A stretch of 64,000 nt of DNA from IMG/VR virus record IMGVR_UViG_3300008448_000052; one strand, written 5' to 3'. The notes under the pieces were generated by a model, which was not told where the DNA came from, ran no database searches, and saw nothing but the letters and a program-made list of their open reading frames with translations. Below, one piece after another: positions 12,514-48,893 of the stretch; positions within the stretch are counted from its first letter, which is position 1; each line of letters opens with the position of its first letter. Source of the stretch: a virus. Position numbers and translations under genes: made by a program.

Positions 12514-12926
12514 TGGGTAAAATACAACCACCTAAAACATTACGATTTGAAGACTTTAAGCCAGAAGAAAAGGACCTAGTCCTTAAGTTGAGTTCAGTAA
12601 TTAATTCATTCAATGATGATGTTTACCGTCAAATAAATGGTAACATTGACTTTGACAATATGAATAGACAAATAGCAGTGGGGGTAGTCATTAAGACAAA
12701 CTCTGCTGGTGTTGTTGTAAACTTGCCTCAAATTAAAATAAAAACAAATACCCTACCTAAAGGTATAAACGTCATTAATGCTGAAAATCAAACAAATTCA
12801 AGCATTTACCCCATTTCTCACCCTTTTATATCCTTTACCATTAAGAATGGCTTAATAACCATTTTAAACGTAACTGGACTTCAAGTTAGCAGTGAATACA
12901 AATTAAATTTAGAAATAATAGGGTAA
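12513..12926 (+). CDS. virion structural protein (putative)
   Basis: 137-aa ORF; ATGA-type coupling with the upstream gene. Confidence 0.45.
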   Translation: MGKIQPPKTLRFEDFKPEEKDLVLKLSSVINSFNDDVYRQINGNIDFDNMNRQIAVGVVIKTNSAGVVVNLPQIKIKTNTLPKGINVINAENQTNSSIYPISHPFISFTIKNGLITILNVTGLQVSSEYKLNLEIIG

Positions 12927-23164: not shown

Positions 23165-23380
23165 TTAAGTTTTAACTGGTTTTGCTTTCGATGTCACTTC
23201 TTTTGTACCTAGAATGCTTTCTAAATACTTAATGTTGGCTTCGGCTGACTCTTTATATTTTTTTAAACTTAAAATGTCTCTTTCGGCTTTAGCGATGTTA
23301 TCATCATATGTTTGAATGTCGTCTTTAGTAGATGTAATGAGGTCTTCAAAGTGTCCTTTAAGGGATTCAGTAATTTTCAT
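23165..23380 (-). CDS. small coiled-coil protein
   Basis: 71-aa ORF. Confidence 0.35.
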   Translation of the reverse strand: MKITESLKGHFEDLITSTKDDIQTYDDNIAKAERDILSLKKYKESAEANIKYLESILGTKEVTSKAKPVKT

Positions 23381-24042
23381 GATTTTCCTTTTTTGTTTTT
23401 AGTTTCTTTAATGATGCCATACTTCTTAGCTTGGTTAACTCCAAACCATGAGTCACCAGTAGTTTTGTTTAAGGACTTAAGGTTGAGTTTACTTCTTGCT
23501 GAAATGATGCCGTACATTTGATCGTTACAAATTTTAGCTTCTGCCACATCGACAAGAGTATCTTTTAGTTTACCTTCGGTGCCATGTGATAGGCTATGTA
23601 TCATAAACCTAGTGTTGGGACTAGCAATGCGTTCAGTGCCAGCTAGAAATATAACTATACCCATAGACGCGATTTTACCACTAGCAATGACGGTGATTGG
23701 ACTAACAGATGCCCGTAACACATCATAAATCGCAAATCCTTCGTAGACTCCTCCACCATAGGTTTGTAGGTGTATAGTGATGGGGTCATGGTTAATGTCA
23801 TTGAGGGTCGTAATGGCTCTAAGTACAAACTCTGACATGTTTTCATTAACTTCTCCTGTAAGTGAAAATCTTCGACGTTTTAGGTCTAAGCCCATTTGTA
23901 ACCACTGTTGAGTGGAGTCTGAGCCAGTCGGGTCTTCTGTAGAAAACTGGGCCAATACTTCTCCATCAGGGCGAACTATACTAAACGTTCCATCATTATT
24001 ACTGTTATTGGCTCTTTTTTTATTCATTATAACTTTTCCCAT
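23377..24042 (-). CDS. ClpP-family serine protease with ~90-aa N-terminal extension
   Basis: YGGGVYEGFAIYDVL...ASGKIASMG...PNTRFMIHS...GDSWF matches the ClpP Ser-His-Asp blocks. Confidence 0.75.
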   Translation of the reverse strand: MGKVIMNKKRANNSNNDGTFSIVRPDGEVLAQFSTEDPTGSDSTQQWLQMGLDLKRRRFSLTGEVNENMSEFVLRAITTLNDINHDPITIHLQTYGGGVYEGFAIYDVLRASVSPITVIASGKIASMGIVIFLAGTERIASPNTRFMIHSLSHGTEGKLKDTLVDVAEAKICNDQMYGIISARSKLNLKSLNKTTGDSWFGVNQAKKYGIIKETKNKKGKS

Positions 24043-25346: not shown

Positions 25347-26213
25347 CTACTTGTCAAGCAATTCTTTATAATTTTTAGATAAAGCATAGTTTTTAAATTG
25401 ATTTATGTCTAAAACTGTACTAAAAATTCCCATTGTATCGTATAATCGTTTTAAGAGTTGTTGGACATCATGGTTTGGACTGTTTTTGTTCCATTTTTTA
25501 CTTTGTTCTAATCCATATGAATATTCAGCTTTAATCTTAATTTTCTGAGTATGTTCTTTTTTAGTTTTCTTTGCCTTGTTTGGCTTAATTTTAATGATTG
25601 ACAAGTTTTTTGTTGGATAGAGGTAAATTTTATCACCTTGTTGAATGAGTTCCTCGTTCTTAATAGCATCCCAAACTGCAACCTCATTTGTTCTAATATC
25701 AACTTCTTTACCCTTTATGTAATAAACTTTCTTAGGCATTAGCATTTCTTTACTATTTGGTCTAAGTTCTGTTTTAAGAACATATCCTTTACAAGCTAGC
25801 ACTGGTTCGGTAATTGTTTTTTTAGCACACCATCTAGAAATGTCTTGAATGTTTACAGCTTCTTTTACATATTTTTCATAAATGTCAACAACAGTATTCT
25901 GCTTATCTTCTAATATGGCATCAATGATTTCTTTCATAAGAGAAGCTAAAGCTGGTTCTTTGGTAGATGATTTAAACGCTGAACCCTTAATTTTAATTTT
26001 ATTAGTACCATGCTCTTTTAAAATATAGTTTTTAGCTCGAACAACAATTACTGTATCAAAATATCCATCATGGTCAAACTGTATTTTTTCAGGAAATTGA
26101 TTGTTAAGTTCTTCTAAAAAAGCATCCTGTTCTTCTTCTGTCCAAAATTCACCATTTGGTTTTTGAACTAAAATTGCATCTGTATCAACATTAACTAATT
26201 TTAAATTATGCAT
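25347..26213 (-). CDS. family B DNA polymerase, C-terminal fragment (motif C + thumb)
   Basis: Begins MHNLKLVNVDTDAILV (DTD motif C) and contains a KxY-like VRAKNYIL; sits directly behind the HEG that follows the N-terminal fragment. Confidence 0.6.
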   Translation of the reverse strand: MHNLKLVNVDTDAILVQKPNGEFWTEEEQDAFLEELNNQFPEKIQFDHDGYFDTVIVVRAKNYILKEHGTNKIKIKGSAFKSSTKEPALASLMKEIIDAILEDKQNTVVDIYEKYVKEAVNIQDISRWCAKKTITEPVLACKGYVLKTELRPNSKEMLMPKKVYYIKGKEVDIRTNEVAVWDAIKNEELIQQGDKIYLYPTKNLSIIKIKPNKAKKTKKEHTQKIKIKAEYSYGLEQSKKWNKNSPNHDVQQLLKRLYDTMGIFSTVLDINQFKNYALSKNYKELLDK

Positions 26214-26877
26214 AATAAAAAACTATCCCATTTTTTGTTTTTTTAGTTCTACCTTTTAAAATATCACAAACAGAACTAACTGAAATTTTCCAATATTTAG
26301 CAGCATCAACTAAACTTTTAAAATTATTATTCATATTGTCTTTCAGTGGTTTTTTACTTTTTTCTATAAATGGTAGTAAATCTAAATGTCGCTTTAGTCT
26401 TTTTGAAATTTTAGACATTTTACTTTTAGTTTCATCAGTATGTTTAAATTTTTTATTTAATTTCAATTGTATCATTTTAATTTTAAATTCTTTTGTCCAT
26501 TTCTTACCATACATATAATGATCAGAACCTTTAATTATTTTTCTTTTTTTAAACTTATCCATTGTTTGTTTACTATGCTTTCGGCCATCCATTGGAGCAG
26601 ACGAGTGTAGACTAATATTATATTTAGGTTGTAAGTTGTTTAAATATAATTGTTCTATTTTTAATTTATTCTTTAGTAAACATTCTTCTATAACCTCAAA
26701 TTTAAAATTATCTTTACCATATTTTTTAAAAGCAATATTAAGTTTATAATTAGGATGTATTCCTTGTTCAGCTTTTCTAAAGTGTTCTTGTTTTCTTTTA
26801 GTCCAATTATTTGTTGAACCTATGTAAAAATCTTTAGTTATTATATTAATAATTTTATATATGTAACTCATTTTCAT
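26206..26877 (-). CDS. GIY-YIG homing endonuclease
   Basis: YIYKIINIITKDFYIGSTNNWTKRKQEH... GIY-YIG core plus basic NUMOD-like C-terminal DNA-binding region. Confidence 0.8.
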   Translation of the reverse strand: MKMSYIYKIINIITKDFYIGSTNNWTKRKQEHFRKAEQGIHPNYKLNIAFKKYGKDNFKFEVIEECLLKNKLKIEQLYLNNLQPKYNISLHSSAPMDGRKHSKQTMDKFKKRKIIKGSDHYMYGKKWTKEFKIKMIQLKLNKKFKHTDETKSKMSKISKRLKRHLDLLPFIEKSKKPLKDNMNNNFKSLVDAAKYWKISVSSVCDILKGRTKKTKNGIVFYYA

Positions 26878-28435
26878 GAGTGCTTAGTCCTTTCCAATAT
26901 TCTACGGTTTTACCAGTTGCAAACATAATTGCATCAGTTAGTACTTTTCTACCCATTCTGGTTACAAAAGCTGCTCCTTGAACAAAATTAAAGTTTAATC
27001 CTGCTGCCCCCATAAATCCATACAAAGAGTTTGCTGCGACTTTTTGAGATTGCTCTAAATCTTTGTAATATTGTTGTCCTGTTTCTTTTGCTAGTTTCTT
27101 ATTTTTTAATCTTTCAGTTGCAAAATATTCTGTAATTTTTAAAAAGTTACCGTGAGGGTCTTTTTCTTTAGAATAGACTTTATAGTGTCTCATTAATGAA
27201 GGATATAGAGAAGAAACGTCACACTTTAAAGCATTTTTATAAATGCCAGCAATACCAAAAGAAATTGCCCCCTCGAATGATTGAACTTCATCTGCTTTTG
27301 GAATACTAAACCCTATTTGCAAATAACTTCTAACCATTATATTATTAATTTGACTACCCGTTGCACTAATGCCCATTGTTTGGAAAGACTTGCTCACCGA
27401 CTGGGTAAAATAGAATTTAGAAGGAATCATTATATCAAATAGTTTTAAACCATCGTCAGAGTCATCATTGGCATATTCTTTGGCTTTATTCCACATTTCA
27501 GGTTTTCCATCTAAATAATCTAAATAATATTGCCACATATGTTTAGCATCAACAAATGTTCTATTTTCTTTTTCTAATCCTAAATGTCTAATAATTGGTT
27601 TTAACCCATAACTAGGAAAACTTCTACCAATGTCATATTGATATGATAGAAACATTGTATCAATAATTTCTCTACCAAAAATGTGACAATTAAAATATTC
27701 AATGTCTTGAGAGCCGTCTTTTCTAAAAGAGCTTTCCCATCTATCAAACCTAATAGCTGAATCATCACGACCTAAATCAAGCTGAATACCTAACTCTCTA
27801 GCTCTAAATGCTAAATATGGTATGTCAAATGATAGTATGTTATGTCCAAGCATTATACTTGGGTCAACAATTTTAACCCATTTAATCCAAGCCTTTATCA
27901 TGGCTGCTTCATTGCCTTTGTAAGTGATGAGGTCAAATATTTTCTTAATGATGCGACCATCAGGTCTACGGTAAGTGTTGGTTATCATTACCACTTTAGA
28001 AAGTTCGGTATGCTTTAGTGTAGTTGTTTCTATGTCAAACGATAAGGCAGACACTTCTTTTGGTACCATGCCCTTAAAGTATGTCATGCCATTATAAACT
28101 AATGTTGCTTCTTTCTGGTCAAAAATACGATAGTAGTCTACATTGTTCTTTTTTAATAGACCAACGACTTTGTCTCGTTCTTCTTGATTATTGAAGGTGC
28201 CCAAATATTTATAGTGTTGAACGCCTTCTAGTGTAGTTTGTTTATCTGAGATTTGTTTATTGGTAATGAACCAAAATGTAGAAGGCTTTTTAGTTAGTTC
28301 TAGCTGACCATTTTTAAGTTGACGATAAATGTATAATTCATTATCTTTGTTTTCAATAGAAACTATACGATCAGTATTATCTTTACCAAATACTAATTTT
28401 TCAGTTTCTTCTGGTGTTGCAAGTAAAGTATTCAT
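26855..28435 (-). CDS. family B DNA polymerase, N-terminal fragment (N-domain, 3'-5' exo, motifs A and B)
   Basis: FDIETT (Exo I), HNILSFDIPYL (Exo II), DVSSLYPS (motif A), KVAANSLYGFMG (motif B); stops before motif C. Confidence 0.8.
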   Translation of the reverse strand: MNTLLATPEETEKLVFGKDNTDRIVSIENKDNELYIYRQLKNGQLELTKKPSTFWFITNKQISDKQTTLEGVQHYKYLGTFNNQEERDKVVGLLKKNNVDYYRIFDQKEATLVYNGMTYFKGMVPKEVSALSFDIETTTLKHTELSKVVMITNTYRRPDGRIIKKIFDLITYKGNEAAMIKAWIKWVKIVDPSIMLGHNILSFDIPYLAFRARELGIQLDLGRDDSAIRFDRWESSFRKDGSQDIEYFNCHIFGREIIDTMFLSYQYDIGRSFPSYGLKPIIRHLGLEKENRTFVDAKHMWQYYLDYLDGKPEMWNKAKEYANDDSDDGLKLFDIMIPSKFYFTQSVSKSFQTMGISATGSQINNIMVRSYLQIGFSIPKADEVQSFEGAISFGIAGIYKNALKCDVSSLYPSLMRHYKVYSKEKDPHGNFLKITEYFATERLKNKKLAKETGQQYYKDLEQSQKVAANSLYGFMGAAGLNFNFVQGAAFVTRMGRKVLTDAIMFATGKTVEYWKGLSTHENELHI

Positions 28436-28436
28436 A

Positions 28437-29204
28437 TTATCTTTTTGGATAGGGTTTTATTAAGTGTTTAATATTAGTATACAACACATGTTTCCTTTTG
28501 CCAACAAAATAAAAGTATCTATGTTTACTTTTCTGTTTAACAAATTTAGCATTAGGGTATCTCTTTAGAATTTCATCTTTACGTTGAGAGCCAATTTTAG
28601 ACCTCATGGCTCTAGACCCGTACAATTTGCCATCTATGATGACACCAAATCGTTCCTTGTTTTTATTTTTAGGATTGCTGTCTCTCATTGAACCAACATA
28701 ATGAAAATTACAGGCTTGGTAAATGGTTCCCACTTCTCCAGCTAAGTGGTCGGTAGTGCAAGTTATCACCTCATATTGAGGCGGTAGCAGCTTTATTGCA
28801 CCCATTATAAGCTTACTGTTAGTGTTCTTAGGTGTCCAATGAAGACATACTCCTCTGGATAATAGCAGCATCTTACCAGTGTAACCATACTTATCCCAAA
28901 CGCCTAAATTCTCAGAATATTCAGGACCAAACACTACAACTCCACCACATAGTTCACCAAAGAAAATACCAAAGGCATATTTATTAACCGCTGGCATACA
29001 ACCAAGCCATTCATATTTCTCTATGATGGTTTTGGCTAATGACATGGTAATGGGTTTAACTATGGCATTCTTTAAAGTTAAGTCAGCATTTGTCCAGTAT
29101 GGGTTTTCCAATTCTTCTTTAGCGGTACGAACTCTTATGTCATACTGCCAAGCTGTACCGATGCTATCCTTATCTAAAGATTCTTCATACCTAGTTTTTG
29201 ACAT
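28437..29204 (-). CDS. hypothetical protein
   Basis: 255-aa ORF coupled between polB and the primase-helicase. Confidence 0.45.
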   Translation of the reverse strand: MSKTRYEESLDKDSIGTAWQYDIRVRTAKEELENPYWTNADLTLKNAIVKPITMSLAKTIIEKYEWLGCMPAVNKYAFGIFFGELCGGVVVFGPEYSENLGVWDKYGYTGKMLLLSRGVCLHWTPKNTNSKLIMGAIKLLPPQYEVITCTTDHLAGEVGTIYQACNFHYVGSMRDSNPKNKNKERFGVIIDGKLYGSRAMRSKIGSQRKDEILKRYPNAKFVKQKSKHRYFYFVGKRKHVLYTNIKHLIKPYPKR

Positions 29205-37901: not shown

Positions 37902-38710
37902 TATTTCTTATCTCCTGTGTTTTGTATCATTGAACCATGATAGTTGTAAACTTCGTCTAAACCGTTAATGTGTAAATGTTCTATACCCTTAGAATAAATA
38001 CCATGAGTTGTGTATAATGCAACCTTATTAGCTCCAGACTCTTTTAATAGTTTTGCAGCCGCAATGAATGTTGCGCCGCCATCACATAAATCGTCTACTA
38101 TAAGAATAGTTTTACCAGTTAAATCAATGGGAAACTTGTGTTTATATTTTAAACCTTCAATGGCACCAGTTTCTTGATTACGTTTCTTTTCTAGAATGAT
38201 AGGGGCTCCATAGTATTCTTCATCATATTGATAGCCACGAGCCGCCGCACCAGCATCAGGAAAACATACATAGTCAGTATTCGATTGTTTTAACACTTGT
38301 TGAATTCTAGGTGAAGGATTTATGTTAATAATGCTAGGCATTATAATGTCTTTAACAGCTTTTATATTGTGCATGTCCACTGTTGTAATGCTTTCAAATA
38401 CTTGACCCATAAGTCTTAAAAAAGGATATAGCGCAAACGTAGACGTGTTTGTTGTAGTTTTGTCTTGACGCGCATAGGGTAGTGTATCACAAAATAAATT
38501 TGCTTTTTTATTAGTTAAAGTAAGTAATAGGTGACCCAATTGATATAGGTGAAAAATTTCCGCTTCATTTTCAAATTTGTATTGAATTCTTACTTCATCT
38601 TTTTGTTTAGGCGCAGGGTTTAAATGCCATGCTTGTGAAGTGCCATCAGGAAATTTAGTAATTTCAAATTCAATAAGTTGTCCAGTCGTCTCGTTAGTAA
38701 TGATAATCAT
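37901..38710 (-). CDS. ribose-phosphate pyrophosphokinase (Prs)-like / Adps-like phosphoribosyltransferase-fold protein
   Basis: ILIVDDLCDGGATFIAAAKLL PRPP-binding loop of type I PRTases; 269 aa with an N-terminal Prs-like half. Confidence 0.6.
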   Translation of the reverse strand: MIIITNETTGQLIEFEITKFPDGTSQAWHLNPAPKQKDEVRIQYKFENEAEIFHLYQLGHLLLTLTNKKANLFCDTLPYARQDKTTTNTSTFALYPFLRLMGQVFESITTVDMHNIKAVKDIIMPSIININPSPRIQQVLKQSNTDYVCFPDAGAAARGYQYDEEYYGAPIILEKKRNQETGAIEGLKYKHKFPIDLTGKTILIVDDLCDGGATFIAAAKLLKESGANKVALYTTHGIYSKGIEHLHINGLDEVYNYHGSMIQNTGDKK

Positions 38711-38814: not shown

Positions 38815-40224
38815 TTATTGTAATTTACTGTCTGTGTTTACGCCAATTGTGTTTAACACTGCTTTTCCTGCATCAGTTTGTGCAAAGCCTTCAACAAGGG
38901 CACCCAATTGCATGCCGCCTTTAGCTGTAAAAACATCACCTACAGATTTAATGCCACTTTGTGCATCTCCACCTGAAATAATCATTTTAACTTCGGCAGA
39001 AGATAGTGCTTTAGCTTGTTCAACGCCAACTGCTTGAGTAGCTTTAATTTGCTCAACTGTGATGAGATATTGTTGGTATTCTTTATTAGAACCAATTTCT
39101 TTAGCTAGTGTAACCTGAGCTGCTACTGGTGCCATTTCCATTGCTTTTTGAGCTTCGGCTCTTGCCATACCCATAGCTTTTTCAGCTTCGGCATTAGCTA
39201 CACCATTAACTTTAACACCTTCGGCTTCTGCTTGTTGTAATGCAAAGTTACCATCAGCGGCTCTCTTAGTCACTTCAAGATCGGCTTCTGCTTGTAATTT
39301 TTTAGTTTGTAAATTGGCTTGTGCTGTAATGACAGAAGTAACTTTAGCTTGTTCAGCGGCAATTTCAGCAACTTGTTTATTAATGTTTGCAGAGTTAACA
39401 TGTTCAACTTGTAAAATTTGCATTTCTTTTTCTTTAGTAACACGTTGTTGATCTTTAATGTTTTGTTGTGCAAATTGATTAGCTAATTCAACTTCGCGTT
39501 GAGCTTCAACTTTACGAAGACCAGTAACTTGTGTCGCTTGTTCTCTAGAAAGAGTAGCCTCGCGTTGAGCTTCAATTTCAGATACTTCTGCAACTTTTTT
39601 ATTATTGGCTACAGCTTGACGAGATTCCATTTCAATGAATGATTTTTTCTTTTCCATGATGTTAGCAATTACTTTAGAGTTAGCCGAGTCACGTAAATCC
39701 ATTAATTCAATGTTCTTAACTGTAGATACGCCCCAATTGGACAATTGCTCCCCAACTTCTTTAGTAAATGCATCACCAAACGAACTGCGACCTTGCATAA
39801 TTTCTTCAATTTCAGAAGATGCTAGCACTACACGAACTGCACCTTGAACAATGGCTTTTAGTTGAGAATGTAATTCATCAAAGCTAGATACACGTTGTGC
39901 GGCTACGTTTGATTCTGTTATGCGGAAAAAGGCTTTAACGTCCACTCTAAATGGTAAGCGTCCTTTGTCGTATGCTTCATAGTCAGTTAAGTCTAAGTCA
40001 AATACGCTAGTGGGTAGAGTAATTTTTGTTATACCAATAACTGGCAAAAATGAAGGCCATTCGTAATACGAGTTACCATTTCCAGTATCTTTACCATACG
40101 ATGTTGTACTGCCAGCAGACTGGACAATGTGTACTTCGTTTGTAGAAACCACTCGACGGAAAAATAGTGGCAGAAAAAATCCTGCTAATAATGCGACAAA
40201 TGCTAAAATAGATGCAATAATCAT
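38815..40224 (-). CDS. SPFH/band-7 flotillin-like membrane protein
   Basis: N-terminal TM, SPFH-like core (…RVDVKAFFRITE…IMQGRSSFGDAF…), long A/E/Q-rich coiled coil like flotillin EA repeats. Confidence 0.65.
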   Translation of the reverse strand: MIIASILAFVALLAGFFLPLFFRRVVSTNEVHIVQSAGSTTSYGKDTGNGNSYYEWPSFLPVIGITKITLPTSVFDLDLTDYEAYDKGRLPFRVDVKAFFRITESNVAAQRVSSFDELHSQLKAIVQGAVRVVLASSEIEEIMQGRSSFGDAFTKEVGEQLSNWGVSTVKNIELMDLRDSANSKVIANIMEKKKSFIEMESRQAVANNKKVAEVSEIEAQREATLSREQATQVTGLRKVEAQREVELANQFAQQNIKDQQRVTKEKEMQILQVEHVNSANINKQVAEIAAEQAKVTSVITAQANLQTKKLQAEADLEVTKRAADGNFALQQAEAEGVKVNGVANAEAEKAMGMARAEAQKAMEMAPVAAQVTLAKEIGSNKEYQQYLITVEQIKATQAVGVEQAKALSSAEVKMIISGGDAQSGIKSVGDVFTAKGGMQLGALVEGFAQTDAGKAVLNTIGVNTDSKLQ

Positions 40225-41266: not shown

Positions 41267-41519
41267 TGTTTCCCCCGATGCGTTCTGTTAAAGTTGTTTT
41301 ACCACTTTTATAAGTGCTTATAGTTTCTGAACAATTAGTAAAGTAGTGATAACGATAGTCACTAAATCTATATACTTTACATCCATCTTTTTGAAAAAGA
41401 AGAACTACGTCAAAATTGTCGGCTGGATTAGCAGTTTGCACTGACACCGCCTGTCCAGATTTAGAACAAGTAAATCCTGTCAACATAAGCGATGCTGTTA
41501 CTAATAGTATTAATTTCAT
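41253..41519 (-). CDS. small secreted protein (signal peptide)
   Basis: 88 aa; N-terminal MKLILLVTASLMLTGFTC signal-like sequence. Confidence 0.4.
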   Translation of the reverse strand: MKLILLVTASLMLTGFTCSKSGQAVSVQTANPADNFDVVLLFQKDGCKVYRFSDYRYHYFTNCSETISTYKSGKTTLTERIGGNNVRK

Positions 41520-43879
41520 AATTCATTTCCTTTTGGTCTAATTAATTTTACTACAAAACCCGTTAATTTGTCAAACTCTTTTTTGTGTATTAAAAACAAA
41601 GATGGACCATATTCGCTGTATTCGTCTAAAAACTGTTGCTTAAATATTCCTAACCCTTTAGGTATGTTTTCTGGGTGGATTTGTTCAGCATACTCTGCCG
41701 CTTTTTTATACCATCCGTAAGCATTTGCCGTAGCACTAGATGCTTTATGAATAAGTTCTTTTTCTATTGCTTCAACTTCTGGTAATATTTCTTCTGGGAT
41801 AAGGGCTTTATATTCAGAAGGTAGGACAAACTTTCCATTAGGTAGTTCTGCCATTTTTTCCCAAATAGAAATGGGACTGATGCTGTTTAGAATTTTCTGC
41901 ATTTTACAATAGGCAGCACCTTTGTCCTTAATGCGAAATCCAGAAGGAACATAACGACGAACTACACCTTCAAAGTTTACAGGCCACGTTTGTTGTAACT
42001 CTTTAATTTCTTCCGCTGTATAGTTATAGGTTTTACGAAGCGGGAAACCAAGAATGTCGGCAAATTCTTTTAATAGGTCTTCATCTAAGTCTTTACCAGT
42101 AACCTTATTTATGGCACATAATAGGACAAGAGTTTTATCATTACCATAGTCAACAACAAGTCTAGCACCATCATTAAATCTGTTTTCTGGATATATAATC
42201 TCAAAACAAGGTGTATAACGCTTTAACGTGCCCAGCATTGTATTATATTTCTCAGAGCCAGCCTCAACCTTAGCTAGGGCTTCTTGTAGCATGGTTGTGC
42301 CAATTTTAGCTTGGTCAGATTGAAAAGAACCACGAGTAGCTATTTTGTATTTATCGTCAACTGGGTCTAAATATAAAATACCCAAAGAACCATCTAGCTT
42401 TTCCTCTACTACAAAAGTTTCACCTACTGGTGGTTGTGGTAGGGTTTTGTTTTCAAGCTCGAACTCATTAAAAAATTTGGACAAGGGTCTAGCAACAGTG
42501 TCGCCCGTTTCCTTATTTAGAATGAGTCCACGACATTCAATGGTATACTTATTCCAATAGCGTTCATATGTACATTTTTCGCTATAGTTAAAAAGTACCA
42601 ATGGTCCACTTTCTTGTTTACGAAGATAGCCTTGCTCTACTAATTTGTCGTATGTTTCAAATTTATTCATATGGTCCCATTCATCGTCTTTAGGTTTTTT
42701 TGGAACATTGCTATCTATTTCGGTTACAATGGCTATTTCTTTTTTAGGACCGTGGATTGTTGCTATTCGGTTTTTTTCACCAAAACAAGTTCCACCATCA
42801 AGTCCATAAATTGTTTGTTCTTTATCATTAACAATAATGGCATTTTTAATGTCTTCAATAACTATGTGTCCAAAAAATAATTTATACTGCGGAAATTTAC
42901 GTTTCTTGTGAAACCAATAGCCAGCCGAAGCTTCTCTAGTAAAAGTTCCCATTTTGTCATCAAAATAACGAGCATACAAACAAAATTCTCTAGTGGTGTT
43001 TTCTGGATGTACGTTTGGATTAAACCCAGCATGGGTGAAATAGTTATCGTGTATTTTTATAATGTAAGGAAAATCCATCATTTTACAATATAGTTCATGC
43101 TTTTTTTCACCCTCTAACATGTCAGATTTAGTTAGTTGGTCAATGGTGCCTTGAATGCTGTCAGTATGAACCTTATTGCCTCTTAGCCAACGTTTGAGCT
43201 TGTGTCCATGATTTGAGTCAGTGACATAAACATTGGGTGTATGTAATACAAACTCAAAAACCTTGTCACATTGTTCGCCTCTATCGTTTAAGTCCCCAAG
43301 AATGAGAAGCATATCGTTTCCAGCAACATATGAAACTAATTCTAAAGTACGAACCATTTCATCATAGCAAGAGTGAGGGTCGGCTAGCACTATGACTCTT
43401 TTAAAGTCATTAGAATAATTAGTTAAGTCAAGAACCTTTAGTCCTGACTTATGTTCTTGCATCGGTATCCAAATGTCACATTCGTTTTTAATACCTTCAA
43501 ATTCTTCTTTATCAAAGTACATGTTTAATGCTTTATATGCGGTCTCAGCATCGCCAGCTTCTATTGTTGGGTGGTTTCTGCGCTTCATTATTCTATCAAA
43601 AGCCACTGCATACGGAACATGGAAATATCTATATTCAATGACATACCCAGCGGCTTTAGCGGGTTCAACATATCGCATACGTTGTTCTTTAGTAAAACCA
43701 ATGCGGTCAACAATGATGTCGTGTTTTTGTTTTAATAAACTATTAAACTCTCGTAAATGACCTTCTTTTCCTTGTCTATCTTGGTTGACAATAAAATAGT
43801 TCTCAGCTTGAGTAGCTGCCCAAGTGCTTTTACCTGAACCTTGGCTTCCTATTGTTAGTATTAATTTAGGTTTAGTCAT
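41516..43879 (-). CDS. tripartite polynucleotide kinase-phosphatase-ligase (Pnkp-like RNA repair enzyme)
   Basis: N-terminal P-loop GSQGSGKST (5'-kinase); central calcineurin-type phosphoesterase ADPH / GDLNDRG / SNHGH; C-terminal nucleotidyltransferase motif I EEKLDGSLG (ligase-like). Confidence 0.65.
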   Translation of the reverse strand: MTKPKLILTIGSQGSGKSTWAATQAENYFIVNQDRQGKEGHLREFNSLLKQKHDIIVDRIGFTKEQRMRYVEPAKAAGYVIEYRYFHVPYAVAFDRIMKRRNHPTIEAGDAETAYKALNMYFDKEEFEGIKNECDIWIPMQEHKSGLKVLDLTNYSNDFKRVIVLADPHSCYDEMVRTLELVSYVAGNDMLLILGDLNDRGEQCDKVFEFVLHTPNVYVTDSNHGHKLKRWLRGNKVHTDSIQGTIDQLTKSDMLEGEKKHELYCKMMDFPYIIKIHDNYFTHAGFNPNVHPENTTREFCLYARYFDDKMGTFTREASAGYWFHKKRKFPQYKLFFGHIVIEDIKNAIIVNDKEQTIYGLDGGTCFGEKNRIATIHGPKKEIAIVTEIDSNVPKKPKDDEWDHMNKFETYDKLVEQGYLRKQESGPLVLFNYSEKCTYERYWNKYTIECRGLILNKETGDTVARPLSKFFNEFELENKTLPQPPVGETFVVEEKLDGSLGILYLDPVDDKYKIATRGSFQSDQAKIGTTMLQEALAKVEAGSEKYNTMLGTLKRYTPCFEIIYPENRFNDGARLVVDYGNDKTLVLLCAINKVTGKDLDEDLLKEFADILGFPLRKTYNYTAEEIKELQQTWPVNFEGVVRRYVPSGFRIKDKGAAYCKMQKILNSISPISIWEKMAELPNGKFVLPSEYKALIPEEILPEVEAIEKELIHKASSATANAYGWYKKAAEYAEQIHPENIPKGLGIFKQQFLDEYSEYGPSLFLIHKKEFDKLTGFVVKLIRPKGNEL

Positions 43880-44405
43880 TCTTTATCTCGCTTAAGTATA
43901 TTTTAGTATTTCTACGTAATGTATTTTTTCTACATAGAACATAGGCAGACATTATTGGATTATTTATAAATTCCAAAGGATTCAATTTTTCTTCTACATA
44001 GTTATGCACCCATGTGTCTTTATAAACAAAAGCCCAAGTGCCCTCATGTTTAGAAGTTCTTTGCCCTAACAATAATATGTGTTTTTCACTAATGGGTCGT
44101 TCTATATATTCTTCATTAGTCTTTAATGCCGTAACCGTAACTTCTTTTACTACCCAACCATGTTTTGATAGCATTTTTTTCATTGCTCTATCTGACCAAG
44201 TTTTAGCAGTTTTAGGTAACGACTTAGATATAGTTTCAGGGGGTAGGTGTAACAAGGCTGAAAGAGCATATGTACCACACGAGCCTCTTACTTTTTTTTC
44301 GTCAACATGAGTCGGTTTAAACATATAATAGTAGGGTTCTTCATACATGTTAAACATGAATGAACTGGTTTGTTTATTATATTTGTTTGCTGAACCAAAT
44401 TTCAT
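43872..44405 (-). CDS. hypothetical protein (start at internal ATG with ATGA overlap onto HNH stop)
   Basis: The track ORF begins at 44474, but Met24 at 44405 forms an ATGA junction with the stop of the upstream HNH gene. Confidence 0.4.
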   Translation of the reverse strand: MKFGSANKYNKQTSSFMFNMYEEPYYYMFKPTHVDEKKVRGSCGTYALSALLHLPPETISKSLPKTAKTWSDRAMKKMLSKHGWVVKEVTVTALKTNEEYIERPISEKHILLLGQRTSKHEGTWAFVYKDTWVHNYVEEKLNPLEFINNPIMSAYVLCRKNTLRRNTKIYLSEIKND

Positions 44406-44929
44406 AACAAGCTCCCCATGTTTCTTTTTACACCTTTTAATCCAAAACCTTCCGAGTGATGCTGCACTTTCCAATGAGCACTAGAACCTTTTTTAACATT
44501 ACAAGCAGTGCAACATGGTGTTAAATTTCTAATGTTATCAGAGCCACCTAGTGCCAATGGTACAATGTGATCTAATTCTGGAAATGTTTTTCTAAAATCA
44601 AACGTAATGCCACAATAGCCACAAAATAATTTACCGTTTAAGTGAAGTAGCACCATAGACTTGCGTAATTTCCATTTATTCTTATAATGTAGTCCACCAT
44701 CACTTTTTACGGGCTGATTTATATATTTTTTATATAATTCATCCTGAGTAAAGAAAATTTTATTACCTAAACTAAAATAGACATTTTTACTAGTTTTGAA
44801 TATAAAACTTACTATAAGCAATTTTACTTGTAGAATATAATTTAAGAAAAAATACTTTCCACTATTATAATAAAGACTAACAATACTAATAATATCATAA
44901 AATACCTGTTTCTTTTGTGTTGTATCCAT
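44402..44929 (-). CDS. HNH endonuclease
   Basis: CGYCG...LDHIVPLALGGSDNIRNLTPCCTACNVKK HNH motif. Confidence 0.65.
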   Translation of the reverse strand: MDTTQKKQVFYDIISIVSLYYNSGKYFFLNYILQVKLLIVSFIFKTSKNVYFSLGNKIFFTQDELYKKYINQPVKSDGGLHYKNKWKLRKSMVLLHLNGKLFCGYCGITFDFRKTFPELDHIVPLALGGSDNIRNLTPCCTACNVKKGSSAHWKVQHHSEGFGLKGVKRNMGSLL

Positions 44930-45731: not shown

Positions 45732-47219
45732 TCATAAGTTTTCTAAAATTTTCTCAACATTATCGTTTGCTTTTTTAATAAGTAAAACATTAGCGTGACT
45801 AGATAATTGTTCGTTAACTAATCCAATGAAGCCTTTAGCTAACATAGCTTGTGAGCTGTCATCAATTTCTTTAGCTTTAGGATTCATCAACTCTAGGTGT
45901 TTTTTCATTGCTGCTGCTGAGTAAACAATGTCTTTAGAAGTCAATGACAACTTTTCACCTTTACCTAAGCGACCAATGGCAAACAACTTAGAGCGTTCCG
46001 CTACTTCACGAATTACTGCTGGTATTTGTCCTGCCAACTCATCACCCACTGCTGTTAAGTCTTCATTTTCTGAAATGAGACCATCAGCATAAACTCTAAT
46101 GAGCTTTTGGGCTGCTGCGCTGTCAGGAGGATTAACCGTGATGATGGCATCAAGACGGCCGGGGCGAAGCATGGCACGTTCAATTTTCTCAATGTGATTT
46201 GTCGTAAAAATACATAGCACTTCTTGGCCTTTTGAGTCGATGCCGTCGATGTTGTTTAATACGTCATTCACTTTTGTGCTACGACCATCAGAAGATTTAA
46301 CCGCATTCTCAATGTCTTCACCAAATACTACTGCTGGTGAATATTGACGAGCAAAAATCATTGCTTCTTTAATGCCTTCAATGCGATCAAGATAAATGTA
46401 TGTCCAACCATTTTTAACCGCTTTAAGGGCTGTAACAGACGCCGTTAATGTTTTACCAGTGCCGTAAGGACCTTCTAATAATACAGTGCGCTTTAACGGG
46501 ATACCAGCGGCTCTACATTCTTCGGTTCTTTCAACTGGTGTGAACAAATTAGTTTGCACTTCTGCTCTCACTTGGTCAGAGAAAGTTAATTCATTTTCAT
46601 TAATGAGCGACAAGTCCATAAAACGAGGAGCTGACATAAAATCAATTTGACCTTCAAGATTTGTTGTCAATTTAATAGCTTGACCTTTATAAAGAGAATT
46701 TTTTGCTGAATAGGCTCTTAATGAATTAGCAATAAATTTAATTTCAGCTTCATACTTTTTCTTAACTACGCCTCTTAATATAAAAATTGGCTTACCGTTT
46801 TTAAGAGCAGCACCAGTGCTTAGTTTTCCTTGCACATTAGGCACTTGGAAATCTCCCCAAATAACTTGAGCAGTTTTACCAAAGGCCACTTCAAGGCTTA
46901 CCATAATCGGAGGATTGGGTCCAAAGAAACCTTGTGTTGGCACCGCATTTACCCAACCATAAATGTCTTTTAACACTTGCATTAAGAAATAGGCACCTTC
47001 CAAAGGCCATGCGCTGTCAATTTCTTCATTGATGGCTACGTCCATTTCTTTTTGCATCTTAATGCGATGCAAGTTATCAATGGCTTCGTCTTCTGTCATT
47101 TCACGAGGGTCGTTTGGCAGCACAATGGCCTTCCCTTGTTTCAATACAGTGATGTCTTTGTTTTTAAAAGCATCCTTGAATTCGTCTTTAGTTCCGTTTG
47201 TTGTTTGTACTTGGTTCAT
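45732..47219 (-). CDS. AAA+ ATPase (classic clade) with ~240-aa N-terminal domain; last gene of Ubl operon
   Basis: Walker A GPYGTGKT, Walker B VVFGEDIE, sensor-2 RPGRLD; starts 2 nt after the E1 stop. Confidence 0.7.
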   Translation of the reverse strand: MNQVQTTNGTKDEFKDAFKNKDITVLKQGKAIVLPNDPREMTEDEAIDNLHRIKMQKEMDVAINEEIDSAWPLEGAYFLMQVLKDIYGWVNAVPTQGFFGPNPPIMVSLEVAFGKTAQVIWGDFQVPNVQGKLSTGAALKNGKPIFILRGVVKKKYEAEIKFIANSLRAYSAKNSLYKGQAIKLTTNLEGQIDFMSAPRFMDLSLINENELTFSDQVRAEVQTNLFTPVERTEECRAAGIPLKRTVLLEGPYGTGKTLTASVTALKAVKNGWTYIYLDRIEGIKEAMIFARQYSPAVVFGEDIENAVKSSDGRSTKVNDVLNNIDGIDSKGQEVLCIFTTNHIEKIERAMLRPGRLDAIITVNPPDSAAAQKLIRVYADGLISENEDLTAVGDELAGQIPAVIREVAERSKLFAIGRLGKGEKLSLTSKDIVYSAAAMKKHLELMNPKAKEIDDSSQAMLAKGFIGLVNEQLSSHANVLLIKKANDNVEKILENL

Positions 47220-47221
47220 CC

Positions 47222-47956
47222 TTAAGCCTCTTTCTCGGAAACTAGTTCCGTTTGTTTTTTGTCTGTAAACATAACCATAGCATTTTGTGACAGCTTGACA
47301 TCCCAGTGTATGAGCTTGGGATATTCTTCGCTCATTAACACATTCTTCACTGTTTTAACAATGAGACATGCTGCACCAAACGCTGTGTAAATGGTGCTTT
47401 TCGCTGTGCAAGGGGTCTGGACACCTTCTTCATTAGTGTGTAATGACTTTCTATAGCCCGTTGTATTAGATAGAGTCTGTGGGTCTAGTACAGCATACTG
47501 ACTATACTTTTCAGCACCCATGCGAGGGTCAACTAATAATTCAGCGCCATGTTGTGAAGCCATTTCTAAACAAAACTTTCTTACTTCCATGTCATCAGCA
47601 CAACAAATGAGATAGGAACCTCTTAATAGTCTACGCATTTCTTCTTCTGGTATGGTGTCATCAAATAGTGCTGGTATGGCGGTTATTTCTATTTCAGCAA
47701 AGTCCTGAATGATGGCCTTTAATGCCTCAACTTTTGAACTACCTATGTCTTTCTTTCTGTAAATTTGATTATTCATGTTTTCAATGGCAACAACGTCAGC
47801 ATCGAAAACTGTAATGTTACTTACTCCCATTTTGGACAATGCAAATGTTGTGAATGAGCCTGTAGCCCCAGCGCCAACAATGACCACTGGTTTGTCTAAT
47901 ACCATATAATTTATGATGTCAGACTGTCTAATGAGGTGGCTGTTAGCGTTAAACAT
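47222..47956 (-). CDS. E1-like (ThiF/MoeB-family) ubiquitin-like activating enzyme
   Basis: VVIVGAGATGSFTTFALSKMGVSNITVFDADVVAIENMNNQIY matches the ThiF GxGxxG...DxDxVExSNLNRQ block; start taken at the internal ATG (47956), 8-nt overlap with JAB stop and GAGGTGG SD; track ORF extends to 48007. Confidence 0.75.
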   Translation of the reverse strand: MFNANSHLIRQSDIINYMVLDKPVVIVGAGATGSFTTFALSKMGVSNITVFDADVVAIENMNNQIYRKKDIGSSKVEALKAIIQDFAEIEITAIPALFDDTIPEEEMRRLLRGSYLICCADDMEVRKFCLEMASQHGAELLVDPRMGAEKYSQYAVLDPQTLSNTTGYRKSLHTNEEGVQTPCTAKSTIYTAFGAACLIVKTVKNVLMSEEYPKLIHWDVKLSQNAMVMFTDKKQTELVSEKEA

Positions 47957-48893
47957 CGCTACCACCTCTATTTGAACGAGAAAAGCGTTCGTGCATATCC
48001 GCACCATCTAATTCGTCAGGTTCAAACATGCCCGCTGCTTCTAACATAGTTAATTCATTTTCCTTATCGTTTAATTCTTCTTCACCAGCTTTATTTAAGA
48101 ATTTTACATATGACTCAGAAGACATTCGTAAAGCTTCTGCTTCGGCGGCAATGCCTTTACCTAGTAGACCATTAATCCACTTAGTAGGGGTAAGCTGTCC
48201 AGCTAATTCTAGTTGTTCATTATCGTCATGAAAAAGTGAAACAGGACGTTTGCTGCTCTTATCTACCCAACATTTTAAGTCATAGTCCCACTCTTGGTTT
48301 GATCTATCAATGATAGAGCTTACTCCCGATGTTTTAGTTGTGTTAGATTTAGCTAATGCTCTTGAGTGTTCAGTAATTTTTTCATCATAGGATGTGTCCC
48401 AATCTGCTGGGTGTAAATAGTATGTGTCCACGTCATCAATGAAAGACGTTGCATCGCCAAACAATGCATGCTTAGTTTTAAAACAAACTGCCGACTTCAT
48501 TTCTTCGCGTTTGTTAAAAACTGTGGCTATGATGTAGCCATTGCCACCATATTTAAGAATGGTGTCCTTATCGGTACCAGACCAAAATACACCCATGTTA
48601 GCATGACTATGCCACCAAAGTTTTGTCGAACCTTCTCCAGATGCCTTGTGTTGCTCTATCATAAGCTTACCTAAATCGGCTTCATCGGTTTCAGTGCTAG
48701 TTGGTCCGTTTACTTGCTTCACTAGAAATACGTCTGTCACTGTAAATACTTTATTTTTCTTGTCATACTCAACATTACCAAAACCACTTATTTCATAAGG
48801 TGATTTTTTTACCCAATGCATAATTTTTTGATAAACTTCTAAAGGATAATGAATTTGAATGCCAGTGTTTTCTACTAAGTTTTTTTTGCTCAT
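47949..48893 (-). CDS. JAB/MPN (JAMM) metalloprotease with C-terminal extension
   Basis: HSHANMGVFWSGTD is an exact HxHx7Sx2D JAMM motif; Glu upstream; AAAGGA SD. Confidence 0.75.
   Translation of the reverse strand: MSKKNLVENTGIQIHYPLEVYQKIMHWVKKSPYEISGFGNVEYDKKNKVFTVTDVFLVKQVNGPTSTETDEADLGKLMIEQHKASGEGSTKLWWHSHANMGVFWSGTDKDTILKYGGNGYIIATVFNKREEMKSAVCFKTKHALFGDATSFIDDVDTYYLHPADWDTSYDEKITEHSRALAKSNTTKTSGVSSIIDRSNQEWDYDLKCWVDKSSKRPVSLFHDDNEQLELAGQLTPTKWINGLLGKGIAAEAEALRMSSESYVKFLNKAGEEELNDKENELTMLEAAGMFEPDELDGADMHERFSRSNRGGSDV

Follow-up and report, generated by a model that had tools for sequence, protein, structure and literature searches.

RNA repair enzymes combine end-healing and end-sealing modules in different ways, and the systems closest to the gene described here are the Pnkp of Clostridium thermocellum (CthPnkp), which works with Hen1, and the T4 pair Pnkp and Rnl1. 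In CthPnkp, residues D187, H189, D233, R237, N263, H264, H323, H376, and D392 are needed for phosphoesterase activity, R237 and H264 being required for its monoesterase activity (PMC2190708), and the H189D variant diverts the product to a 2′-phosphate (PMC1920235). When the kinase-phosphoesterase unit of CthPnkp was combined with T4 Rnl1, it supplied all of the end-healing for tRNA splicing in vitro, whereas the same unit performed poorly with the yeast Trl1 ligase (PMC1920235). This implied that the unit makes 2′-OH ends. In T4 Rnl1, specificity for tRNA is conferred by the C-terminal domain (PMC6379707).

We analyzed a gene within a 64,000-nt stretch of viral DNA, which we call the window. 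The phage setting was confirmed by genes for a major head protein, a primase-helicase, a DNA polymerase, and an exonuclease. An earlier sequence-only reading had proposed a Pnkp-like ORF here; the ORF is real, runs uninterrupted from an ATG, and lies on the minus strand, which that reading had left unstated (Table 1). Since four contigs from independent assemblies encode an identical 787-aa protein (the three displayed come from JGI 3300008107 and from two metagenome assemblies at NCBI), an assembly artefact is ruled out. Pfam searches, the check that had been proposed, placed AAA_33 at aa 6-104 (3.4e-12), Metallophos at aa 161-341 (4.3e-6), and RNA_lig_T4_1 at aa 448-630 (2.3e-14), all above their gathering scores. 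In PHROGs, the protein matched the Rnl1 family phrog_562 (1e-45) and phrog_8238 (8e-32), the 737-position profile of the latter being matched over aa 80-671. Together these domains confirm the proposed order of kinase, calcineurin-type phosphoesterase, and nucleotidyltransferase. The motifs GSQGSGKST (aa 11-19), ADPH (aa 166-169), GDLNDRG (aa 195-201), and KLDGS (aa 494-498) were all found as described. The function that fits best is the healing and sealing of RNA ends, and the product is probably an autonomous RNA repair enzyme that does both in a single chain.

Table 1. Features of the repair gene, in window coordinates
Feature	Coordinates	Strand	Basis
Complete ORF (787 aa + stop): kinase, metallophosphoesterase, and Rnl1-type ligase in one chain	41516..43879	-	
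N-terminal P-loop polynucleotide 5′-OH kinase module, aa 1 to ~135	43475..43879	-	AAA_33, family profile, residue invariance
Central binuclear metallophosphoesterase module, aa ~156-390; predicted 2′,3′-cyclic phosphodiesterase and phosphomonoesterase	42710..43414	-	Profile against 4j6o, conservation
Rnl1-type ligase module	41885..42667	-	
C-terminal all-helical module, aa ~666-787; putative substrate-specificity domain	41519..41884	-	

A megablast search with the gene found no match among 50,697 phage records, and relatives were found at the protein level only. Some relatives are full fusions; in others a kinase-phosphatase gene adjoins a separate ligase gene, or the ligase gene stands near one for a Pnkp of the T4 kinase-HAD type. 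The best 150 matches of the exhaustive search included about 20 clusters of full-length fusions as well as many proteins that are split or stand alone. Kinase-phosphatase proteins and ligases each occur commonly as standalone members, and many of the standalone ligases that are close relatives reside in Bacteroidota genomes. In one locus (L009) Rnl1 pieces come directly after the kinase-phosphatase gene, and the nearest standalone ligase (L010/L011) is two genes away from a T4-type kinase-HAD Pnkp, in which HAD_PNKP is present. The same domain is found in Runella aurantiaca (L044), where the ligase is immediately upstream of a kinase-HAD Pnkp; we rejected assignment of this locus to the HD-Pnk/Tpt1 type of Runella slithyformis, as it is a T4-type ligase and Pnkp pair. 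Among the matches listed in metagenome and IMG/VR locus scans, most were distant standalone ligases and not close syntenic relatives. Some relatives are split by a homing endonuclease, with an HNH ORF between the pieces, and some carry an intein. A group I intron in the split relatives was rejected because the HNH ORF shares a few nucleotides with each of the pieces beside it, leaving no space for an intron core, and Rfam detected no intron in L004 or L006.

To score conservation, we used 37 relatives of 33-56% identity. The sealing domain has the ligase fold, and its conserved residues R450, K468, F469/470, K494, G497, R516, E560, E637, G638, K651, and K653 align, in order, with T4 Rnl1 R54, K75, F76/77, K99, G102, K119, E159, E227, G228, K240, and K242, which are likewise invariant in a 27-member alignment of the T4 Rnl1 family. 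Motifs I, Ia, III, IV, and V correspond to K494-x-DGS, R516-GS, E560, E637-G638, and K651-x-K653, and all are invariant except R516 (35/37). Motifs III-V, whose absence would have told against the sequence-only reading, are thus intact. Downstream, the helical module contains invariant P695-E696-E697 and R781-P782. It fails the Pfam T4_Rnl1_C model (PF20819), and a fold comparison revealed a weak likeness to Rnl1 C-domains. We regard it as a putative counterpart of the T4 Rnl1 C-domain, either very diverged or distinct. Since it is not recognizable as that domain by sequence, and by fold only weakly so, the target may not be tRNA anticodon loops.

The surroundings of the gene include recombination and replication genes, a PRPP synthetase, a NAMPT-like protein (NAD+ salvage), and a weak match to an Acb2/Tad1 hairpin, and the gene order is syntenic in relatives. 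This neighborhood looks like a counter-defence island. About 4 kb downstream of the repair gene, on the same strand, is an anticodon-less tRNA-like gene with a 4-nt anticodon loop, and a second such gene occurs in a syntenic relative. Loops of 5, 8, and 9 nt in our cloverleaf scan were mostly register artefacts, and those that were checked (CAU, UGG, UUG) proved to be ordinary 7-nt anticodon loops.

A bolder proposal, which we consider unlikely, is a Hen1-independent class of single-chain repair in which the divergent C-terminal module marks a new ligase sub-clade with a substrate other than the usual anticodon-loop break. In this phage lineage the enzyme would act jointly with the tRNA-like RNA, which might be its decoy, its cofactor, or its substrate, as part of the counter-defence island against RNA-targeting immunity. 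A rather improbable alternative is that the enzyme serves a programmed phage RNA instead of damaged host tRNA, by ligation or circularization, or by processing of the anticodon-less transcript. Both the tRNA-like genes and the difference between the C-terminal module and the tRNA-specific C-domain of T4 Rnl1 are consistent with a programmed substrate. However, one relative (L096) pairs the repair gene with an ordinary tRNA-Met in place of the tRNA-like gene, and no such element was seen on most family members' contigs.

In the kinase, the P-loop GSGKST spans aa 14-19 (nt 43823-43840). Residues G14, G16, K17, D34, R67, and R100 are conserved among the 37 relatives, with the P-loop and D34 invariant; D34 is the putative general base, a residue whose equivalent Asp has been described in PMC11571804. 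Profile comparison identified Mucorales RNA 5′-OH kinases as the nearest solved relatives (RazKIN 9d8a, 1.7e-24), followed by mammalian PNKP (2e-11), the CthPnkp kinase (1e-8), and T4 Pnk (1e-7); fungal and mammalian polynucleotide kinases are therefore nearer than T4 Pnk. Polynucleotide kinases of this class accept DNA in addition to RNA (MciKIN, PMC11571804), and literature cited in PMC1920235 describes in vitro action of CthPnkp on DNA ends. With recombination and replication genes nearby, these observations would suit a DNA end-repair enzyme in the manner of PNKP plus ligase, acting for instance on 3′-phosphate/5′-OH nicks left by host or phage nucleases and not on RNA, a reading we judge to be very unlikely.

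For the phosphatase, the nearest solved relative was the phosphatase of CthPnkp (4j6o, 1.2e-30). Its nine functional active-site residues are all present: D167, H169, D196, R200, N223, H224, H283, H338, and D361 align, in order, with the CthPnkp residues listed above, eight of them being invariant in the 37 relatives and R200 occurring in 35/37. Every metal ligand is in place, so the loss of ligands that would have told against the sequence-only reading is not seen. The "GNHE-like" motif of the sequence-only reading does have a counterpart at aa 222-225, but the actual letters are SNHG and the family consensus is GNH[DE]; the window protein carries S222 for a Gly found in 35/37 members and G225 for an Asp or Glu found in 35/37, and these departures from consensus count against the repair reading. 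The equivalent of CthPnkp H189, H169, is a His, which counts in favor of that reading, as does the presence of R200 and H224.

The phosphatase profile also matched Ap4A hydrolases (4e-27 to 1e-23), almost as strongly as it matched CthPnkp, and NCBIfam gave ApaH and PrpE matches below threshold. Together with the NAD+-salvage and Acb2/Tad1-like genes in the neighborhood, this could point to the phosphoesterase as the main actor, degrading Ap4A, cyclic nucleotides, or 2′,3′-cNMP against host defence, with kinase and ligase accessory or vestigial. We give this only a very slim chance. All catalytic residues of the kinase and the ligase are invariant across the family, which speaks against these modules being vestigial, and a phosphatase that is repeatedly fused to or placed beside an RNA ligase and kinase fits end-healing. 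R200 and H224, although generic to the clade, suit phosphomonoesterase action at the end of a polynucleotide. Lastly, orthology to bacterial Pnkp, by which an Rnl4-type ligase would stay auto-inhibited until Hen1-N bound, the junction would bear a 2′-O-methyl mark, and Hen1 would lie outside the window, is effectively refuted and scarcely credible: the identical domain order, the phosphatase profile, and a weak TIGR04075 match speak for it, but that NCBIfam model aligns with aa 5-387 only, at 46.7 bits against a 750-bit cutoff, so that the likeness to Pnkp is limited to the healing half.

The preferred reading is a single-chain RNA repair enzyme. Domain identities, intact and conserved active sites, the ligase fold, and the linkage of the modules across genomes are demonstrated here and support it, as do the compatibility of the CthPnkp healing unit with T4 Rnl1 in vitro, the lack of Tpt1, Hen1, or methyltransferase matches in the window, and the island-like neighborhood; the three activities, the clean 2′-OH junction, the RNA target, and the counter-defence role are predictions. 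Repair would proceed in three steps. The binuclear (Mn2+/Ni2+-type) metallophosphoesterase would open a 2′,3′-cyclic phosphate and strip the phosphate to give a 2′-OH,3′-OH end. The P-loop kinase would then transfer an NTP gamma-phosphate to the 5′-OH, with K17 and S18 predicted to bind nucleotide and metal and D34 to activate the 5′-OH. K494 of the T4-Rnl1-type ligase would be adenylylated and pass AMP to the 5′-phosphate, and the ends would be sealed as a 3′-5′ phosphodiester. The predicted junction would carry neither a 2′-phosphate nor a 2′-O-methyl mark, making Hen1 unnecessary. In effect, this would be the T4 Pnkp and Rnl1 pathway in one chain with the HAD phosphatase swapped. Its most likely role during infection would be to undo the cuts that ribotoxin-type host defences make in tRNA or in other RNAs of translation. 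tRNA cut in this way is the most likely target, and PrrC, RloC, PARIS, and the like are plausible sources of the cuts. A full-text literature search found no measured activity for any member of the family, so all functional assignment draws on homology. The ligase-like protein of a different Runella repair cluster, distinct from L044, self-adenylylates yet sealed none of the tested 3′-OH/5′-PO4 substrates (PMC6097658), and intact motifs are thus no guarantee of conventional sealing.

Should this prediction prove right, the whole T4-style RNA restriction-repair pathway would reside in a single polypeptide, a compact, reagent-like enzyme that turns 5′-OH/2′,3′>p ends into a clean, sealed junction. 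Such a protein would likewise serve as a natural "Rosetta stone" that joins Pnkp-type metallophosphatase healing to Rnl1-type sealing in vivo, as was done in vitro in 2007. The spread of the family suggests that these phages commonly come under pressure from defences that cleave RNA, and the variable C-terminal module offers a handle on substrate choice by RNA ligases.

Compared with known systems, the window protein shares with bacterial Pnkp-Hen1 the N-to-C order of modules, including the N-terminal P-loop polynucleotide 5′-kinase, and the phosphatase active site, whereas the Rnl4-type, Hen1-N-activated C-terminal ligase is absent. It is a chimera in which healing is of the Pnkp type and the ligase of the T4 type, and it stands outside the bacterial Pnkp/Hen1 family. 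The absence of Hen1, which the sequence-only reading had noted and which holds over the whole window, is then expected and no puzzle; no Hen1 or methyltransferase match was obtained among the scanned ORFs across the window or in the relatives' loci. T4 tRNA repair employs two polypeptides, Pnkp (PseT) and Rnl1 (RnlA/gp63), where the window protein is one. The T4 3′ phosphatase is a HAD/DxDxT acylphosphatase, whereas Pfam finds no HAD domain (HAD_PNKP) in the window protein and Metallophos in its place, and the T4_Rnl1_C model of the T4 ligase does not recognize the C-terminal module. In fungal and plant Trl1/AtRNL (Rnl6), the order LIG-KIN-CPD is the reverse, and a 2H cyclic phosphodiesterase leaves a 2′-phosphate that is required by the ligase and then removed by Tpt1. 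The window protein has a metallophosphoesterase instead, no Tpt1 was detected in the window, and, as read from the sequence, no RxxR 2′-phosphate site of the Rnl6 C-domain follows motif V.

Among phage proteins, Fnu1 gp169 of a Fusobacterium phage has the same AAA_33, Metallophos, and RNA_lig_T4_1 domains by Pfam. For SPbeta-like Goe11/SPbetaL3, Lactobacillus phage Lb338-1, and Alicyclobacillus phage KKP_3916, a tri-domain layout is suggested by tblastn alignment extent only. Such PHROG 8238-type proteins, annotated "RNA ligase," "metallophosphoesterase," "protein phosphatase," or hypothetical, share 22-23% identity with the window protein, and their tblastn alignments end near aa 616-663, so the C-terminal module of the window protein is not common to them. 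A full-text literature search found no biochemical study of these tri-domain phage proteins, and the fusion may have been catalogued computationally before. Nothing in current understanding is overturned; there is ample precedent for RNA-repair domains being reshuffled as modules. In Bacteroidota-type RNA repair, healing and sealing modules are likewise reshuffled in the Pnkp1-Rnl-Hen1 complex of Capnocytophaga gingivalis (PMC4411300) and in the HD-Pnk/ligase/Tpt1 cluster of Runella slithyformis (PMC6097658). Taken together, these comparisons indicate that the gene is a novel combination of well-known parts.

We found the 787-aa ORF claimed by the sequence-only reading on the minus strand of the window, and all three of its modules exceeded their Pfam gathering thresholds, with AAA_33 at aa 6-104, Metallophos at aa 161-341 and RNA_lig_T4_1 at aa 448-630. 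Of the motifs quoted in that reading, only the third phosphoesterase motif departs from the quotation, being SNHG rather than GNH[DE]; the others are there. In PHROGs, the protein matched phrog_562, the T4 gp63/Rnl1 family, at 1e-45 and, over aa 80-671, the 737-position profile phrog_8238. Four contigs, three of them shown, encode an identical protein. The window encodes a major head protein, a primase-helicase, a family-B DNA polymerase and an exonuclease and is a phage genome; in a megablast with the repair gene, none of 50,697 deposited phages was a relative at the nucleotide level.

Assignment of the protein to the bacterial Pnkp family, as proposed from the sequence alone, did not hold. 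The NCBIfam equivalog model for bacterial Pnkp, TIGR04075, has a cutoff of 750 bits and scored 46.7, and the match spanned only model positions 9-413 of 851, that is, the kinase and phosphatase. When a profile built from our alignment of 37 full-length relatives (A1; 33-56% identity) was run against all PDB sequences, the ligase module matched T4 Rnl1 (2c5u, 5tt6 and 9do4) at ~1e-23; Rnl3, Rnl5 and Rnl2 were listed at ~14, 12.8 and 11.5, respectively, in the ligase-type comparison. Rnl1-type ligases do not require Hen1-N, so it is expected that the ORFs scanned across the window included no Hen1, methyltransferase or Tpt1, which for Hen1 bears out the earlier observation. In the Pnkp ligase, by contrast, an insertion domain blocks the ligase until Hen1-N binds (PMC4411300).

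The same profile search and alignment were used to map the active sites. The closest solved relatives of the kinase are the Mucorales stand-alone tRNA-splicing RNA 5'-OH kinases 9d8a/9drz (~2e-24), followed by mammalian PNKP (2e-11), the kinase of Clostridium thermocellum Pnkp (CthPnkp, 1e-8) and T4 Pnk (1e-7). The P-loop GSGKST at aa 14-19 is conserved; of its residues, G14, G16 and K17 are invariant in the 37 relatives, and so is D34, the counterpart of the essential MciKIN Asp36 that activates the 5'-OH (PMC11571804). The phosphatase is closest to the CthPnkp phosphatase domain (4j6o, 1.2e-30), whose phosphoesterase activity requires D187, H189, D233, N263, H323, H376 and D392, with R237 and H264 needed for monoesterase and cyclic-phosphodiesterase activity (PMC2190708). 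These align with window D167, H169, D196, N223, H283, H338 and D361 and with R200 and H224, respectively; eight of the nine are invariant, and R200 is found in 35/37 relatives. Near the GNH[DE] motif, the window protein has S222 in place of G and G225 in place of D/E, each against 35/37 members. In the ligase, T4 R54/K75/F76/77/K99/G102/K119 correspond to window R450/K468/F469/470/K494/G497/R516 and T4 E159/E227/G228/K240/K242 to E560/E637/G638/K651/K653, and these residues are invariant or nearly so both in the window family and in a 27-member alignment of the T4 Rnl1 family. Hence neither ligase motifs III-V nor the phosphatase metal ligands, on which the sequence-only reading had staked its case, are missing.

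RNA ligases are sorted into clades by the domain added to the nucleotidyltransferase core. In the window protein, this is the C-terminal all-helical module (aa ~666-787), and any tRNA specificity of the ligase hangs on whether it belongs strictly to the Rnl1 clade. The C-domain of T4 Rnl1 gives tRNA specificity (PMC6379707). Its family, PF20819 (T4_Rnl1_C), is carried by all T4 Rnl1 relatives (1.8e-39 for T4 itself) and gave no match even at E<=10 to the module, nor to P0085, a close standalone ligase encoded two genes from a T4-type Pnkp. In profile-profile comparison, the module alone was co-linear with the Rnl1 family over 81 columns without reaching significance (probability 2.8%, E 0.016), and the alignment of the whole ligase (3e-30) continued through T4 residue ~329. 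Upon a BFVD fold search with the module, five of the seven top matches were C-terminal parts of phage Rnl1-like ligases; these five included Clavibacter phage CN77 (TM 0.68), Tenacibaculum phage pT24, Caulobacter phage CcrBL9 and the split RnlA of the T4-like Acinetobacter phage 133. The module is thus probably a very diverged Rnl1-type helical domain.

Because each module belongs to an established family, the chemistry would proceed in three steps, in which the metallophosphoesterase would convert 2',3'>p to 2'-OH,3'-OH, the kinase would put a phosphate on the 5' end, and the ligase, once adenylylated at K494, would seal the ends. The main support in the literature comes from Keppetipola et al. 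2007 (PMC1920235), where tRNA splicing in vitro with T4 Rnl1 needed no healing activity other than the CthPnkp kinase-phosphoesterase. The CthPnkp unit works poorly with the yeast Trl1 ligase, which implies that it yields 2'-OH ends, and the H189D change diverts its product to 2'-PO4 ends (PMC1920235). The window protein retains His at this position (H169). Our analysis shows its domains, the conservation of their active sites, the fold of the ligase and the linkage of the modules in genomes; from these we infer that it has the three activities, acts on an RNA target, leaves a clean junction and serves in counter-defence.

The features of the window are as follows.

Features of the window around the repair gene and elsewhere in the phage genome
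Feature	Coordinates (nt)	Strand	Remarks
ClpP-family protease	23377-24042	-	precomputed Pfam tables
288-aa ORF	25347-26213	-	weak match, PolB residues 556-667, E 0.06
GIY-YIG/NUMOD3 endonuclease gene	26206-26877	-	
PolB N-terminal part with exonuclease domain	26855-28435	-	
Mom-like protein (PF25680, DNA modification family)	28437-29204	-	next to primase-helicase; precomputed Pfam tables
Acb2/Tad1-hairpin	~31.3-31.9 kb		weak match
NAMPT-like protein	35110-36651	-	NAD+-related cluster
Small metallophosphoesterase	36672-37244	-	NAD+-related cluster
tRNA-like gene	37440-37509	-	Rfam tRNA 50.8 bits; rejected by ARAGORN
PRPP synthetase	37901-38710	-	NAD+-related cluster
SPFH/Band_7 gene	38815-40224	-	few genes from repair gene
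Kinase-phosphatase-ligase ORF	41516-43879	-	ATG start, 787 aa
Free-standing HNH endonuclease gene	44402-44929	-	two genes upstream of repair gene
AAA+/nSTAND3-like ATPase	45732-47219	-	
ThiF/E1-like protein	47222-48007	-	
Weakly JAB-like protein	47949-48893	-	

The genes around the repair gene fit a counter-defence role, which is no proof of a target. The region with the NAMPT-like protein, PRPP synthetase and the weak Acb2/Tad1 match resembles an island for NAD+ reconstitution and anti-defence, and the order SPFH, PRPP synthetase, NAMPT is kept in the related contigs L095 and L096. SPFH/Band_7 genes also lie near repair genes in relatives (L004 12001-12801, L006 8305-9105, L095 5445-6224, L096 11162-12637) and beside a ligase and Pnkp pair in Runella aurantiaca (L044 2513-3673), and a Gad2-like gene adjoins SPFH/Band_7 in two of four related phage contigs; this recurrence may be chance or functional. 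Upstream of the repair gene, the row of ATPase, ThiF/E1-like and weakly JAB-like genes (45732-48893, -) may form a module for ubiquitin-like conjugation or deconjugation. The position of the free-standing HNH gene of the window is similar to that of HNH genes in L095 and L096. Elsewhere, the family-B DNA polymerase (25347-28435, -) appears to be split by the GIY-YIG endonuclease gene.

The strand that encodes the repair gene also carries, ~4 kb further downstream, the tRNA-like gene. Its acceptor, D and T arms are canonical, and a UUCG tetraloop caps the anticodon stem; since this arm is only 14 nt compared with the usual 17, the gene has no anticodon. The sequence is identical in four more fetched loci from independent assemblies. 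In L095, a syntenic relative, the tRNA-like sequence (12651-12721, +) is another one, also 3 nt short in the anticodon arm; it is not a close homologue of that in the window, and its fold is ambiguous. The corresponding site of L096 is occupied by an ordinary tRNA-Met. When we scanned 3.1 Mb in 257 sequences (256 fetched loci and the window) for cloverleaves, 141 normal tRNAs came up, and a 4-nt loop occurred only in the window and L095 sequences, with ~one match in total in three shuffled replicates. Phage tRNAs that evade anticodon nucleases through anticodon-loop mutations are a known theme (PMC10264068). The gene may be a decoy, a processing signal or a pseudogene; as a decoy, it could divert defences that target tRNAs.

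Reshuffling of domains as modules is a familiar feature of RNA repair enzymes. We searched 1.84 billion representatives exhaustively by HMM, and among the best matches were full fusions (~740-790 aa), phosphatase-ligase forms, kinase-phosphatase proteins that stand alone (370-400 aa) and, in large number, standalone ligases (350-390 aa) that match profile positions 390-764. Rnl1 pieces come directly after a kinase-phosphatase gene in L009, and in L010 and L011 the nearest standalone ligase is two genes downstream of a T4-type kinase-HAD Pnkp. Cellular Bacteroidota (Emticicia, Arcicella, Runella, Spirosoma, Saprospiraceae) encode ligases 36-42% identical to aa 404-720, that of Runella aurantiaca immediately upstream of a kinase-HAD Pnkp. 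Judged by these gene neighbourhoods, this ligase lineage normally functions as part of a two-gene cassette for healing and sealing in the style of T4; in the window protein, a metallophosphoesterase has taken the place of the HAD phosphatase, and all parts are fused. The tri-domain architecture is already in databases and PHROGs, unrecognised: distant analogues (22-23% identity) occur in deposited phages as Fnu1 gp169 and in SPbeta-like phages, Lb338-1 and KKP_3916, with inconsistent annotation, and we found no biochemistry on them in the literature.

Several relatives carry insertions. In L004 (6001-8868), L006 (3080-6024) and L007 (2396-5166), the repair gene is in pieces, with an HNH ORF of 155-191 aa inserted between the KFFN..EL element and ligase motif I and overlapping both halves by a few nt; this looks like a split by a free-standing homing endonuclease rather than a group I intron, since there is no room for an intron core. 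The related proteins P0004 (1089 aa) and P0011 (1091 aa) have a ~300-aa insert directly behind the phosphoesterase GNHD motif, which opens with Cys (CVK...), closes with ...FTGN ahead of a +1 Cys, shows a faint LAGLIDADG_3 signal and is probably an intein within the phosphatase active-site motif. The tblastn matches in L017 (5001-7994), L186 (10001-13110) and L099 (10001-13221) span ~3.0-3.2 kb compared with 2.4 kb, which suggests more insertions (endonuclease, intein or intron).

Taken together, the window protein is not a member of the bacterial Pnkp family, three defining features of which were tested and found lacking. It differs from T4 Pnkp in having no HAD domain, and from Trl1 in having no 2H domain and a reversed domain order. 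The likeness to Rnl1 is established for the catalytic core, which is Rnl1-type. As judged from its domains, the protein would be a functional match in one chain to the T4 Pnkp and Rnl1 pathway, but with a phosphatase of the Pnkp type.
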